64,000 nucleotides of DNA from an uncultured Candidatus Saccharibacteria bacterium (GTDB lineage Bacteria; Patescibacteriota; Minisyncoccia; Phycocordibacterales; PALSA-1337), in NCBI GenBank assembly GCA_964406895.1, contig CAYOTK010000001.1:90697-154696 (forward strand), written 5' to 3'. Both the position numbers and the translations under genes were made by a program. Shown piece after piece: positions 3,264-8,052 of the stretch (positions are counted from its first letter, which is position 1; the number at the start of each line of letters is the position of its first letter). The notes beneath the pieces are model-generated. The model ran no database searches. It was not told where the DNA came from and saw only the letters and a program-made list of their open reading frames with translations.

Positions 3264-3591
3264 CGGAGCGTACGTTGGGAAGTAAAACATTTCAGTACCA
3301 ACAGGAATAAAAACAAAAATGCATTCCGTTAGTAGCGGCGAGCGAAAGCGGAGGAGACTAAACTTAACGTCGCAAGACGTTGAGGGTTGCAAGGCAGAGA
3401 CGTGCTATTTATAGCAGAGAAGTTACAAAATCTTTTGTTAGCAGAATGAGCTGGAAAGCTCGACCCTAGAGGGTGATAGTCCCGTAAGTTAAAACAAAAG
3501 ATCTTCTTGGTTTCTGTTCTTAAGTACCCCAGGACACGAATAGCTTGGGGGAATCTGCCGGAACTAACCGGCAAGTCTAAATATTTTTCTA

Positions 3592-3631
<40 letters not shown>

Positions 3632-4437
3632 CAGCCCGGAAGGGCGGTGAAATAGATCTGAAACCATATGCCTACAAGGAGTCAGCGCCGTTGCACCTCA
3701 TTGCATTTGCTATAGTGAAATAATCAATAACCAAGATCCAATAATCAAACTCTTATCGAGTTTTGTTTGTTGATTATTGGTGTTTGATTATTTCATGGTA
3801 TCGAATGTAACGAGGTGTAACGGTCATGGCGTGCCTATTGAAGAATGAGCCAACGAGTTTTAGCAAGCAGCTCGGCTAAGTCCGCGAGGACGGAGTCACA
3901 GGGAAACCGAGTCTGAATAGGGCGTTTGTTGTTTGCTAAAGACCCGAAGCCAGATGAGCTTGCCACGCGCAGGGTGAAGTTCGCCGAAAGGCGGATGGAG
4001 GCCCGAACCGGTTAGCCGTGCAAAACTATCGGATGACGTGTGGTAAGGAGTGATAAGCTAATCGAATCTGGTAATAGCTGGTTCTCTCCGAAAAAACTTT
4101 TGGGTTTGCGTCAGAATTACCTTCGTGGGGTAGAGCACTGGAAGGTCTCGACAGGTCGAAAGATCACGAGACCTATCAAACTCCGAATACACGAAGTAAC
4201 TATCTGGCAGTTAGACTGTGGGGGCTAAGCTCCATTGGTCAAAAGGGAAACAGCCCGGATCTCAATTTAAGGTCCCTAAATCGACGTTCAGTGCGCTTAA
4301 GGTAGTGAAAATTCTACGACAATGAGGATGTAGGCTTAGAAGCAGCCATCATTCGAAGATAGCGTAACAGCTCACTCATCGAGAAATTTCGCGCCGCAGA
4401 TAATCGGGGCTAAAATGTCGTACCGAAACTGAGGACT

Positions 4438-4683
4438 TGTAAACTACATTGAGGAAAATTTTGTTCTTTAGGTACCAGAGTAGTTCAATGGCAGAACAGC
4501 TGATTTGGTTGCGCATTGCGACCGTTTTAAGTCAGTATGTTGAAGGTTCGATTCCTTCCTCTGGTGCCAAGTAGATTTCGGTGCTCGGGTAGCACATCTC
4601 GCCAATAAAGCGAGACGGGTTAAAACCCCGCCGGGCATCAATTTCGGGGGGAACTTCGGTTCCCCTCCTCAATGTAGTTTACA
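4438..4683 (+). other. IVS in the 23S gene at the helix-45 position (E. coli ~1170). A perfect 17-bp flanking stem (tgtaaactacattgagg / cctcaatgtagtttaca) encloses a tRNA-like module.
   Basis: 23S homology stops at 4437 and resumes at 4684. The insertion is bounded by a perfect inverted repeat, as in RNase III-processed IVSs. Confidence 0.7.
4474..4569 (+). ncRNA. tRNA-like element inside the helix-45 IVS. Features: 7-bp acceptor stem (ACCAGAG/CTCTGGT), D-arm (GTTC AATGGCA GAAC), canonical T-arm (GAAGG TTCGATT CCTTC), discriminator G and an encoded CCA. The anticodon region is expanded by ~21 nt (loop-like TTTGGTT, i.e. a UGG-like anticodon, then a 21-nt insert).
   Basis: Folded by hand from the sequence. 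The GGTTCGATTCC T-loop and a 3' CCA adjacent to a complementary acceptor strand are both present. Confidence 0.5.
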
Positions 4684-5231
4684 AGTGGTAGGAGAGTATT
4701 TGCATCGCGATGAAGGTGAAGGGGTGACCCACACTGGAGCGTTGCGAAGTAAGAATGTTGGCACAAGTAACCGCAATGCGGGTGAGATACCCGCACGCCG
4801 AAAGATCAAGGTTTCCTTGGCAATGTATATCAGCCAAGGGTTAGTCGGTCCTAAGGGGATGGCGAATGCCGCACCCGATGGATACACGGTTAATATTCCG
4901 TGACTTTCATAAAAATCGATGGAGTGACGAAGTGTAGTATATTGTGCGCATAATTGGATTTGACGTTCATGTCGTAAGGATGAGTCTTGGTAAATCCGGA
5001 CTCTGCTTTTGATAGCATATCCAAGCGAAGTGAAAATTTCGAGCAATCGGGAAATACAATAAAGCACACTTCCAAGAAAAGCTTCTAAGATTATTTTTAT
5101 GAAAACCGTACCGCAAACCGACACAGGTGGTTAGGTCGAGTAGACCTAGGCGAACGAGTGAGAGGTCTCCAAGGAACTCGGCAAAAAAGCAGCCGTAACT
5201 TCGGAATAAGGCTTGCCCTCTGGATATTGGT

Positions 5232-5295
5232 CGTTAGTTTTTGGTTTTTGGTAATCGCATTTGTGATTACTAATAACTAATTACTAATTACTAAT
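5232..5295 (+). repeat. AT-rich hairpin mini-repeat (ttagtaatta family), copy A, in the 23S helix-63 variable region.
   Basis: The sequence cgttagtttttggtttttggtaatcgcatttgtgattactaataactaattactaattactaata is about 57/65 identical to the reverse complement of 6931-7015. Confidence 0.6.
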
Positions 5296-5489
5296 ACCCA
5301 GAGGGCCGCAGCTAAAGTATCTCTGGCAACTGTTTAACAAAAACACAGCTCCCTGCGAACTCGTAAGAGGAAGTATAGGGGGTGACACTTGACCAATGCG
5401 AGAAGGTCAAATAACGGCGGTGCGATTATATCAAGCTGACTGTTATAAGCCCTCGTGAATGTCGGTCGTAACTATAACGATCCTAAGGT

Positions 5490-6263
5490 TCTTGGTTTAT
5501 TCACAAGAATGAATCAAGAAGGACTGGGATCGTTATGAGATTAATTGTTAAATATAGAAAACGTATAAGGAATTAATAATGCTGCCTATCTGCGCAGAAT
5601 AAAATGCAGATGTCCTAATAAATATCTGACTATATGCTGGGAAGTCTGAGTATCTCAGGTCACTATGGTATAATTACACCATAGTAACAATACCATGAGT
5701 GCAGACAATCAGCAGGAAAGATTAAAAATTGAAAATTGGATTCTTGGTTTCACTGATGGTGAAGGATGCTTTTCGGTTAGTTTTATAAGAAATAAAACGA
5801 CGAAAACCGGATGGCAAATTTTTCCAGAGTTTGTGATTACGAAAGGAGCCAAAAGTCTGTCTGCTCTCAAAATTATCAAAAAATATTTTGGGTGTGGAAA
5901 ATTATTCGTAAACAGACGTCATGATAATCATAGGGAAAATCTATATCGTTATTGTGTTAGATCTGTTACTGAATTGGAGAAAGTTATCGTCCCATTCTTT
6001 CTAAGAAATGAACTGAAGACATTTAAAATGAATGATTTTCGATTGTTTTCGAAAATCATACTGATTATGTCTGCTGGCGATCATTTGAATATAGTGGGAA
6101 TGAATAAAATCGCCAAATTAGTAGAAAAAATGAACAGACGAAAAAAATCTCGATTTTTGAAATCCTCAGAAACCAAACGTCAGACCCTGAGCGAAGCGCG
6201 TAGCGCTGAGTCGAAGGGAAAATAGAGTTCGCGCTGCATAGCGATATGCAGATTAACAAAACG
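5490..6263 (+). mobile_element. Intron-like insertion (presumed group I) in the 23S gene at the helix-69 hotspot (E. coli ~1917), carrying a LAGLIDADG endonuclease ORF.
   Basis: 774 nt interrupt CCUAAGGU|AGCGAAAUUCC. Preceded by U and ends in G. Junction placement is ambiguous by 1 nt. The group I core was not confidently identified by eye. Confidence 0.65.
5695..6225 (+). CDS. LAGLIDADG homing endonuclease, single-motif (homodimer type), intron-encoded.
   Basis: 176 aa with motif ILGFTDGEGCFSV near the N-terminus. Lies entirely inside the 23S insertion. Confidence 0.8.
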   Translation: MSADNQQERLKIENWILGFTDGEGCFSVSFIRNKTTKTGWQIFPEFVITKGAKSLSALKIIKKYFGCGKLFVNRRHDNHRENLYRYCVRSVTELEKVIVPFFLRNELKTFKMNDFRLFSKIILIMSAGDHLNIVGMNKIAKLVEKMNRRKKSRFLKSSETKRQTLSEARSAESKGK

Positions 6264-6894
6264 TAGCGCAATTCCTTGCGGGGTAAGTTCCCGCGCGTTG
6301 AAAAGTGTAATGACTGGAGAACTGTCTCGGAGACTTGCTCGGTGAAAATACAATACCGGTGAAGATGCCGGTTACCTGCAGTTAGACGAAAAGACCCTAG
6401 AAGCTTTACTGTAATTTGGTATTGACTATACGTTTTTGATGCGTAGCGTAGACGGTAGGATTTGAAGTGTCCCTTTCGGGGGGCATGGATCCGACGATGA
6501 AACACCGTTCTTTAAGAATGTATATTCTAACCTCGGCGGTATAAACGCCGGGAGACAGTATCTGATGGACAGTTTTAGTGGGGCGCTATCCTCCTAAACA
6601 GTAACGGAGGAGCCTATTAAGTTCAGCTAGGCGCGAATGGAAACCGTGCCGATAGTGTATGGGCACAAGCTGGATTGACTGCGAGACGTACGTGTCGAGC
6701 AGATGCGAAAGCAGAGCCAAGTGATCCGACCTTACGCATTAGATGCGGGGGAAGCTCATCGGACAAAAGCTACTCTAGGGATAACAGGCTAGTTCCGCCT
6801 AAGCGTTCATAGCGACGGCGGAGTTCGGCACCTCGATGTCGGCTCACCACATCCCGGGGGTGGAGAAGCTCCCAAGGGTTTGGCTGTTCGCCAA

Positions 6895-6929
<35 letters not shown>

Positions 6930-6930
6930 A

Positions 6931-7015
6931 TTTAGTTATTAGTGATTAGTAGTTAGTTATTGGTGATCGCAAATATGATTACCTAAAACCAAGAACTAAT
7001 AACCAATAACCAAGT
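6931..7015 (+). repeat. AT-rich hairpin mini-repeat, copy B, inverted relative to copy A, at the 5' edge of the second intron. A partial third copy lies at 7099-7145.
   Basis: Reverse complement about 57/65 identical to 5232-5295. The ttagtaattagt motif recurs at 7099-7145. Confidence 0.55.
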
Positions 7016-7137
7016 AGGGCAGTCTGAATCACTTCGAGAGATAATTTTAGTAGTCTATGAAAAAGTATAGGAAATGAACAATCATATCATGGCGGTCGTT
7101 TTAGTAATTAGTCATTAGTAATTAGTGATTAGTTCTA

Positions 7138-7560
7138 ATGCGAACAAGTCGATTTATATCGGTGGAAATCCCGAAAAGGAAGATACCGAGGGAATTATGT
7201 TCACTTAAATGGAAAAGAAGGAAGCGTATGATAATAAAATGGAAGTTGCTAATAAGCGTGTGTGTAGATGATGATTTTGAAAATTGCTTCAAGGATCTGG
7301 AAGCAGATGATGCAGATCAGGCTTTGGAATTAGCGTTCAAAGAAGTTCAGAAAGTTAACAATAGTCTTAGTGATAACGCAGACATCAACAGTGCTCTTTT
7401 ACTCGGGTTTCCTCAAGATGGAGCTTGGAGAAAGAGGCATGGTGACTTCGTTTTCATTGGACGCTGCAGAGCTCTTCAATCCAAAGAAGCAATCAAACAT
7501 TCATCGGTCAGTGAGTTCTGGAGGCCATACGGTACAGCGGACGGCACCATCGAAGACTGA
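7138..7560 (+). CDS. Intron-internal ORF of unknown type (140 aa). No LAGLIDADG, GIY-YIG, HNH or His-Cys motif seen. Possibly degenerate or novel.
   Basis: Longest ORF inside the second 23S insertion. Acidic/low-complexity middle (DDDFENCFKDLEADDADQALE). Confidence 0.3.
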   Translation: MRTSRFISVEIPKRKIPRELCSLKWKRRKRMIIKWKLLISVCVDDDFENCFKDLEADDADQALELAFKEVQKVNNSLSDNADINSALLLGFPQDGAWRKRHGDFVFIGRCRALQSKEAIKHSSVSEFWRPYGTADGTIED

Positions 7561-8052
7561 CCTCAAGGGAATGGTCTCCATTCCCTCCATTTAAGTGAAC
7601 ATAAGCCCGTAGAGACTAAACATCGACCCCCACTTCGCTCCTTTGGAGCTACGCGGGGAAGCTATAGTCCATTGCATCCTGTAAAGGATGATAACAAGCG
7701 TGAGACAGGTTGGTCTCCTATCTACTGCAGGCGTTGATACTTGAGGGGATTTGATAATAGTACGAGAGGACCTTATTGAACAGACCTCTGGTCTACCTGC
7801 TGTCGTGCCAACGGCACCGCAGGGCAGCTATGTCTGGACCGGATAACCGCTGAAAGCATATAAGCGGGAAGCCGACCCCAAGATTATGTATCGTTGAGAC
7901 CCCTGAGAGATGATCAGGTTGATAGGCGTTAGGTGTACGCACCGTAAGGTGTTGAGCCGTGACGTACTAATCCGTCGATCCTGTTAGGAACTTTGTACAG
8001 CATTATTTACGCACTTTATTTCTCGGTTATGGTTTTGAAAGTTGAATATTTT

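Follow-up and report, generated by a model that had tools for sequence, protein, structure and literature searches.

We analysed a 64,000-nt stretch of DNA (the window) from an uncultured Candidatus Saccharibacteria bacterium (assembly GCA_964406895.1, contig CAYOTK010000001.1, forward-strand positions 90,697 to 154,696). A 23S ribosomal RNA (rRNA) gene runs along its + strand from ~2972 to ~7950, with the 5S gene next. Here we describe an insertion in this 23S gene that has the make-up of a group I intron, together with the small open reading frame (ORF) that it carries in a peripheral loop. All features given below are on the + strand.

The insertion site in the 23S rRNA gene

In a BLAST comparison with the Escherichia coli gene rrlH, E. 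coli positions (Ec) 1927-2596 corresponded to window 6260-6929 and Ec 2594-2779 to window 7699-7884; from the alignment of both exons, the insertion is therefore 772 nt long. A CGT triplet at both junctions gives equivalent placements, from 6927-7698 through 6930-7701, on the window sequence alone. The intron of a close metagenomic relative (loci L002-L009, hereafter L002) has exon flanks identical to those of the window and an unambiguous 5' junction, GACCGT/CCT, and the window intron is therefore placed at 6927-7698, after Ec U2593. The splice sites are thus 6926/6927 and 7698/7699, with U6926 as the last exon base and G7698 (omega-G) as the last intron base. A U ending the 5' exon and a G ending the intron are the terminal nucleotides required of a group I intron. 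The equivalent of G7698, directly 5' of CGUGAGACAG, was invariant in 32 of 32 aligned relatives. The end of the 5' exon (6915-6926, Ec ~2582-2593) forms the 5' strand of P1, and the 3' exon starts with CGUGAGACAG (7699-7708, Ec 2594 onward); BLAST and the L002 junction place both exons and the intron between them, with covariation as further support for the 5' exon and the intron, and the relatives for the latter.

An earlier reading of this DNA, made from the sequence only, had put a 771-nt insertion at 6930-7700, at the 2593 site of I-CreI type. The rrlH alignment and the L002 junction bear out both the insertion and the site, but not the length or the edges, since 771 nt would leave one extra T. 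The site falls within the peptidyl-transferase region of 23S rRNA, and in bacteria of the Candidate Phyla Radiation (CPR) the 23S gene is usually single-copy (PMC11270868). Among the fetched loci, the window exons were nearest to L128 and L033 (Candidatus Paceibacterota), at 94-95% identity.

The group I core and its peripheral additions

Relatives of the intron were sought in one-genome-per-species contigs with a degenerate pattern made of the putative P7 strands and the 3' exon (AGACTAAA..TATAGTC..CGTGAGACAG). The scan gave an L2593 family of at least 120 loci, nearly all with CPR/Patescibacteria names. With the 5' exon as anchor, 107 distinct introns were extracted at the 2593 site; these were 233-772 nt long, mostly 250-450 nt, and mostly ORF-less. 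RNAalifold run on 30 ORF-less members recovered P1, P3, P4, P5, P6, P8 and P9, with compensatory changes at 42 of 60 pairs. The structure was also drawn in window coordinates and its pairs were counted explicitly on an alignment of the window and 31 relatives (family alignment 400-511 columns, core ~300 positions). Across these 32 sequences the window-derived structure was 93.7% paired, compared with 30-46% when the 3' partners were slid by 1-3 columns. The covariation score was 0.399, against at most 0.12 for the slid controls, and was reached by none of 500 shuffles.

P1 (6915-6923 with 7022-7030, and 6925-6930 with 7015-7020) pairs the exon strand with an internal guide sequence (7015-7030), within which G7019 forms a U.G wobble with U6926 at the 5' splice site. 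Covariation links the guide sequence to the exon base at Ec ~2588 (column 7/191; GC in 23 sequences, AU in nine). The 5' strand of P3 (gucgau, 7148-7153) pairs with aucgac at 7622-7627, and all six of these pairs show compensatory changes. P4 (7159-7164 with 7184-7189, 99% paired) and P5 (7169-7171 with 7178-7180) together span 7159-7189, and P6 has a GGG/CCC base (7190-7192 with 7606-7608) followed by 7195-7199 with 7600-7604. The 3' half of the catalytic core (7612-7670) consists of P7, the 3' strand of P3 and P8. P7 is a pseudoknot in which 7612 and 7614-7618 pair with 7665-7670 (gagacua at 7612-7618, with A7613 bulged, and uagucc); between its strands stands the P8 hairpin (7628-7658; pairs 7628-7631 with 7655-7658), which is a different hairpin in L002. 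P9 (7675-7690; 7675-7680 with 7685-7690) has a GUAA tetraloop and compensatory changes at five of its six pairs. Pair counting gave comparative support to P4, P6, P8 and P9 as well. A stretch near the 3' end of the intron, noticed earlier for its resemblance to the R and S core elements, turns out to be P7, the P3 3' strand, P8 and the P7 3' strand.

Several observations weigh against the group I assignment. The window gave no match to the Rfam model Intron_gpI (RF00028), the check suggested with the sequence-only reading, whether the gathering threshold was applied or E was allowed up to 10, whilst shorter relatives do match it and covariation supports the fold. At 63.9 bits the 266-nt intron of L077 exceeds the gathering threshold of 50, with L063 (38), L065 (29), L062 (26) and L002 (18 bits) below it; we attribute the lack of a match in the window to its three large peripheral inserts, which lower the sensitivity of the model. 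A splice-site U.G wobble is near-universal in group I introns; in the register chosen here (column 12/185) the splice-site U is paired with A in 27 of 32 family members, with U.G in the window and a few close relatives. The pairing of P7 is perfect, yet it was fixed by the search pattern; P7 therefore does not vary and carries no covariation evidence. Splicing of the window intron, finally, is argued from the group I class.

An alternative is that the insertion is no ribozyme but an expansion or intervening sequence that RNase III excises or that stays in the rRNA, with the ORF a chance frame. The missing Rfam match would agree with this, as would the resemblance of other insertions in the same 23S gene to hairpin intervening sequences. 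However, this insertion has a complete group I core with covariation and relatives that match Intron_gpI, it interrupts the peptidyl-transferase region of what is usually the sole 23S gene (PMC11270868), and three other introns preserve its ORF in frame at 34-41% identity; we regard the alternative as highly improbable. Membership of the RNase III type, with its simple basal stem and its sites at helices 25 and 45, was likewise rejected for an insertion at Ec 2593 with a full group I core. The assignment of the window insertion as a group I intron at the L2593 site is well supported by the comparative data. By analogy with its class, P1 would present U6926.G7019 to the active site, and free guanosine at the G-site of P7 (the G7614-C7669 region) would attack after U6926. 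Omega-G7698 would then occupy the G-site, and exon ligation would restore GACCGU-CGUGAGACAG in the peptidyl-transferase region.

Three lineage-specific additions, in L1, in the P2 region and in L6, enlarge the window intron relative to its relatives, and its ribozyme core tolerates all three. The P1 loop is filled by an 86-nt AT-rich hairpin of TTAGTNA heptads (6930-7015); L002 has a 20-nt hairpin instead. The AT-rich hairpin that had been pointed out at the 5' edge of the intron is real, and absent from L002. In the P2 region (7031-7147), uggcgguc (7090-7097) is conserved in the family; next to it comes a second TTAGTNA array (7098-7136), in place of the short hairpin that relatives have 3' of the conserved CGGCGGUC. 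The third addition is P6 with the ORF cassette (7190-7608, ~420 nt), closed by a perfect 19-bp stem (7195-7213 with 7586-7604, 100% complementary) and containing, after the stop codon, a further hairpin (gggaaugg ucu ccauuccc, 7567-7585).

TTAGTNA occurs 13 times in the window, against 2.06 matches expected, and 12 of the 13 are within the 23S gene. Heptad hairpins stand at 5215-5306, 6930-7015 and 7098-7136, as short-period repeat hairpins confined to rRNA genes. Analogous repeat hairpins with other units occupy corresponding loops in other CPR genomes (the P1 loops of L043, L054 and L081, and L132 1416-1530). This suggests that repeat hairpins are a general route for enlarging rRNA and intron loops.

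The ORF and the protein family

A 140-aa frame (7138-7560), reported in the sequence-only reading, is open in the window, but the conserved gene comprises just its last 110 codons, from ATG 7228, followed by a TGA stop (7228-7560). We rejected the longer reading because its upstream 30 codons coincide with P3-P6 and with the margin of the variable heptad insert in the P2 region, where ATG 7138 lies, because L002 has in-frame stops in this part, and because homologues and gene callers alike start at M31. A Shine-Dalgarno-like AAGGAAG (7218-7224) stands 3 nt before ATG 7228. The ORF had no match in Pfam, PHROG, NCBIfam or PDB sequence searches. The absence of LAGLIDADG, GIY-YIG, HNH and His-Cys signatures, remarked on before, thus holds at the level of families, as the ORF fell into no known homing-endonuclease family in Pfam, PHROG or NCBIfam.

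Homologues were sought among 5.8 billion protein clusters and 1.84 billion representatives, and in Joint Genome Institute (JGI) metagenome contigs and viral contigs. The database homologues were only P0002 (81% identity), P0003, which is a variant of P0002 with a 1-nt deletion, and P0004. P0004 (locus L132; 108 aa, ~40% identity over its full length, E 1.5e-18) is encoded by a group I intron inserted at ~Ec 1062 of a Candidatus Taylorbacteria 16S gene, within the loop equivalent to P6. A six-frame search of the fetched loci with a hidden Markov model yielded a fourth member, an uncalled 105-aa ORF in L066 (E 7e-25), which lies within a 1341-nt group I intron at 23S Ec 2262 and is absent from the protein databases searched. 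The family thus comprises four lineages, each encoded in the P6 loop of an rRNA group I intron, with three rDNA sites represented (23S-2593, 16S ~1062 and 23S-2262), and the homologues in other rRNA introns are in frame and 34-41% identical to the window ORF. Every one of the four lineages has a cassette of 419-429 nt with a closing stem of 14-19 bp, numerous stops in the other reading frames, and a purine-rich Shine-Dalgarno-like motif 5' of the start codon (in L002, L132 and L066 as the equivalent of AAGGAAG). A further candidate, P0005 (697 aa), matched in eight stretches (E 2e-7); its sequence is made of low-complexity tandem repeats, and the match was treated as compositional.

Profile searches with alignments of three and four sequences returned no additional lineage; scans of the JGI metagenome contigs gave none beyond the Taylorbacteria type and scans of the viral contigs none at all, and no member outside rRNA introns was found in any of the collections searched. 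Of ~107 different introns examined at L2593, two contain the cassette (the types of the window and of L002), as do the two introns at other rDNA sites. This sporadic distribution among mostly ORF-less relatives, always in the P6 loop, is the pattern expected of the homing-endonuclease class.

Two of these loci have further features. The L010 contig, from the European Nucleotide Archive, differs from L002 by a 1-nt deletion in the ORF, which shifts translation to the +1 frame; that frame stays open for 75 codons (protein P0003). The deletion reflects either an error of sequencing or incipient pseudogenisation. The Taylorbacteria 16S locus L132 holds two group I introns (27-907 and ~921-1330) only ~12-14 nt apart, after Ec 1062 and ~Ec 1074. 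If both a U at -1 and an omega-G are required of the first of these, one extra U is left in the mature 16S rRNA.

Between the window and L132, the proportion of nonsynonymous differences in the C-terminal half was 0.265 and that of synonymous differences 0.77, and 25 of 42 identical residues were specified by different codons. This pattern is indicative of purifying selection at the level of the protein. We also considered that the ORF region is conserved as RNA structure rather than as coding sequence; the third-position and synonymous-codon pattern and the closed state of the other frames led us to reject this. The ORF is therefore not the random sequence that a comparison with related introns might have revealed, but has full-length homologues, at 34-41% identity, with a synonymous-substitution signature. 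Of the two identities first proposed for it, a novel intron-encoded protein has gained support from these homologues under selection; a decayed homing endonuclease has not, given that LAGLIDADG similarity is absent from every frame.

A different picture emerged within the window lineage, and it counts against a functional ORF there. Between the window and L002 the ratio of nonsynonymous to synonymous substitution rates (dN/dS) was 0.88, with 21 nonsynonymous and four synonymous codon changes, and the 29 differences are spread 8/12/9 over the codon positions, so that third-position bias is absent. The ORF of this lineage is evolving almost neutrally, though the frame, the start codon and all family-invariant residues are kept, and the window copy may already be functionless. 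It could then be an open relic of a once-selected family that is drifting to loss in the window/L002 lineage. In keeping with this, the ORFs of the window and L002 differ by ~9%, compared with near-identity of their ribozyme cores and exons, a variant with a 1-nt deletion exists (L010/P0003), and the N-terminal half is now strongly acidic relative to other members. Set against it, the 333-nt ORF is free of stops and indels in the window and nine L002-type contigs, over an interval in which L1, P2 and P8 were remodelled by indels, and the family-wide invariant motifs, the Shine-Dalgarno-like site and the start codon are all retained. On balance we think such a relic possible, though on the unlikely side.

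The LAGLIDADG alternative can be judged from sister introns, four of which (L021, L026, L028 and L065) carry I-CreI-like LAGLIDADG genes of 150-173 aa in the P6 loop; the L065 protein matches I-CreI over its full length (E 1e-25). If the window ORF were a decayed gene of this type, its site and P6 loop would be the expected ones, and the window and sister introns also have the base of P6, GGGAA(G)UUAUG, in common. Yet none of the frames of the window intron was matched by three sister-intron proteins in tblastn, and blastp gave 4-residue matches only; Pfam was empty for the ORF; its predicted topology differs from the alpha-beta-beta-alpha-beta-beta-alpha arrangement; and it has homologues of its own under selection. 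With zero similarity to the sister LAGLIDADG proteins, this identity was rejected and is effectively refuted. A side observation concerns a 704-nt L2593 intron in L076 (Candidatus Liptonbacteria), which has full-length tblastn similarity (48-57%) to LAGLIDADG proteins and no ORF of at least 50 aa open under genetic code 11. The gene is either a multi-stop pseudogene or a case of recoding.

The window intron itself is a further member of an already known kind. Group I introns at 23S-2593 of CPR bacteria ('23IS12') are common and mostly carry LAGLIDADG_1 genes, in a survey that annotated solely ORFs with Pfam domains (Tsurumaki et al. 2024, J Bacteriol, PMC11270868). The spread of CPR rRNA introns is attributed to LAGLIDADG endonucleases. 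The 23IS12 introns share with the window intron the phylum-level group, the insertion site, the ribozyme family and a peripheral-loop location of the ORF, and many are ORF-less. Unlike them, the window intron has a Pfam-less orphan gene in place of a LAGLIDADG_1 ORF, and two heptad hairpin inserts. Introns at 23S-2593 are also known from chloroplasts, where I-CreI is encoded, and from cyanobacteria (Haugen et al. 2007, PMC1995217). The Chlamydomonas chloroplast Cr.LSU intron and the cyanobacterial L2593 introns share the rRNA position (Ec 2593), the target of I-CreI being presumably ACGUCGUGAGACAG. In contrast to them, the window intron lacks a LAGLIDADG gene, and the large P7.1/P7.2 extension of the cyanobacterial introns (PMC1995217) was not seen in it. 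What is new in this otherwise known intron type is the heptad-repeat loop inserts, with the cargo protein family.

Predicted fold and possible role of the protein

AlphaFold2, given an alignment of three sequences, predicted a structure for the window protein with a mean per-residue confidence (pLDDT) of 83.4 and a predicted TM score (pTM) of 0.79, in the order beta-beta-alpha-beta-alpha-beta-(alpha-alpha)-beta. A second run, on P0004, reproduced residues 1-77 of this model at lower confidence. Foldseek searches of the predicted models against PDB and BFVD returned nothing significant. The structure prediction proposed along with the sequence-only reading thus delivered a model without delivering a significant match in these two libraries. 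In both PDB searches the best match was the designed protein Top7 (7fao/1qys; E 0.07-0.26, TM 0.33-0.40). Both AlphaFold2 models share with it the order beta-beta-alpha-beta-alpha-beta..beta; the match is non-significant, and since Top7 was designed rather than evolved, it offers no function to assign to the window ORF. Weaker matches to the archaeal/eukaryotic ribosomal protein LX/eL20 and to the GIY-YIG nucleases Slx1 and HIGLE (E 0.3-2) were also non-significant and were left unused. Reliance on these models is tempered by the three sequences on which they were built and by a fold comparison that covered PDB and BFVD.

In the ORF, neither the catalytic motif nor the fold of GIY-YIG, HNH, His-Cys box, PD-(D/E)xK or EDxHD homing endonucleases was found. 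We consider the protein unrelated to the LAGLIDADG, GIY-YIG, HNH, His-Cys and PD-(D/E)xK enzymes, and a genuine member of a rare family travelling with rRNA group I introns. Residues invariant across the family are M1, I3, K4, W5, A32, E39, L47, L58, G60, D64, W67, R68, H71, D73, F74, V75, F76, R79, K86, F97, W98, R99, P100 and G102. The isoelectric point (pI) ranges from 4.7 in the window member to 9.6 in that of L066.

Our explanation of the whole, which we hold to be fairly probable, is a CPR L2593 group I intron, in the single 23S rRNA gene of a Paceibacterota-like bacterium, with an L6 cassette that carries an orphan-family ORF, whose product would preferably serve the intron as a nucleic-acid-binding protein. 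Within this role, a new kind of homing or mobility factor is plausible, if tentative. The location in the homing-gene loop, the presence at three rDNA sites, the sporadic distribution and the relaxed selection in a fixed copy all point toward it, and the near-neutral evolution of the window-lineage copy is as would be expected late in a homing cycle. Several properties speak against a nuclease: invariant acidic residues are few (E39, D64 and D73, plus H71), the protein is just 105-110 aa long, its pI swings between 4.7 and 9.6 among members, and in the L066 intron an intact LAGLIDADG_2 gene would make a second endonuclease redundant.

The L066 element (3574-4914) is a single group I intron with two ORFs, the orphan 105-aa ORF in the P6 loop (3812-4129) and the LAGLIDADG_2 gene after P9 (4285-4926; intact, 213 aa, 162.8 bits). 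The final 9 coding nt of the latter, and its stop codon, run into the 3' exon.

The few conserved acidic residues, the small size, the coexistence with LAGLIDADG in L066 and the shared intron RNA point instead toward an RNA-directed role. The protein would then be an RNA-binding splicing or folding cofactor (maturase-like) for an expanded intron lineage, with no DNA endonuclease activity. What the three insertion sites have in common is the intron RNA, whilst the DNA targets differ; the P4-P6/P7 core is similar across sites and the cassette is always in P6. Mobility could be supplied by the complete LAGLIDADG_2 gene in L066, and the invariant residues are mainly aromatic or basic (W5, W67, R68, H71, F74, F76, R79, K86, F97, W98, R99). 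On the other hand, most introns of the family are ORF-less and presumably removed without such a protein, the window and L002 proteins are acidic (pI 4.7-5.0), the structure comparison gave no similarity to RNA-binding folds, and we know of no non-LAGLIDADG group I maturase in bacteria. We regard a cofactor of this kind, within the intron-serving role or as a reading in its own right, as unlikely.

There are precedents for an rRNA group I loop that holds a protein which is not, or is no longer, a homing endonuclease, namely the LAGLIDADG maturases and the rps3 gene in a group I intron of the fungal mitochondrial rnl gene, whose product is an intron-encoded non-endonuclease protein. The window family has no sequence or fold relation to these; it is tiny, with four lineages, and a host function is not evident. 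With these lineages, three sites and a predicted fold unlike natural PDB entries, the 110-aa ORF could tentatively be taken to found an undescribed class of intron-encoded proteins, either a new homing/mobility family or the first non-LAGLIDADG bacterial group I maturase.

Other elements of the same 23S gene, and implications

The 23S gene contains further insertions. At the helix-45 intervening-sequence site (window 4434-4746, between Ec 1163 and 1245) there is an insertion of ~230 nt, whose closing inverted repeat is perfect over 21 bp (4435-4455 with 4666-4686). Within it, an Rfam match to transfer RNA (tRNA) spans 4474-4566 (58.5 bits), ending ...CUCUGGUGCCA; the unit has ~20 extra nt in the anticodon region and ARAGORN makes no call. 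A tRNA-like unit within an rRNA intervening sequence is unusual. The first 23S intron (5490-6259, Ec ~1927-1931) has a 176-aa ORF (5695-6225) with the LAGLIDADG-type motif ILGFTDGEGCF and is a conventional LAGLIDADG homing-endonuclease intron.

Two practical lessons follow for the detection of such elements: group I introns with inflated loops escape the Rfam Intron_gpI model, and gene callers that mask rRNA conceal the ORFs within them. For CPR bacteria, the intron described here indicates that the P6 cargo loop of rRNA introns can hold an orphan protein other than LAGLIDADG, one whose frame is conserved at all three rDNA sites and which has a LAGLIDADG gene beside it in one of the introns. 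If the protein is a true nuclease, it would be a new and very small homing-enzyme scaffold, possibly useful in genome engineering; if it is a true RNA cofactor, it would represent protein-assisted group I splicing in bacteria through a new fold.

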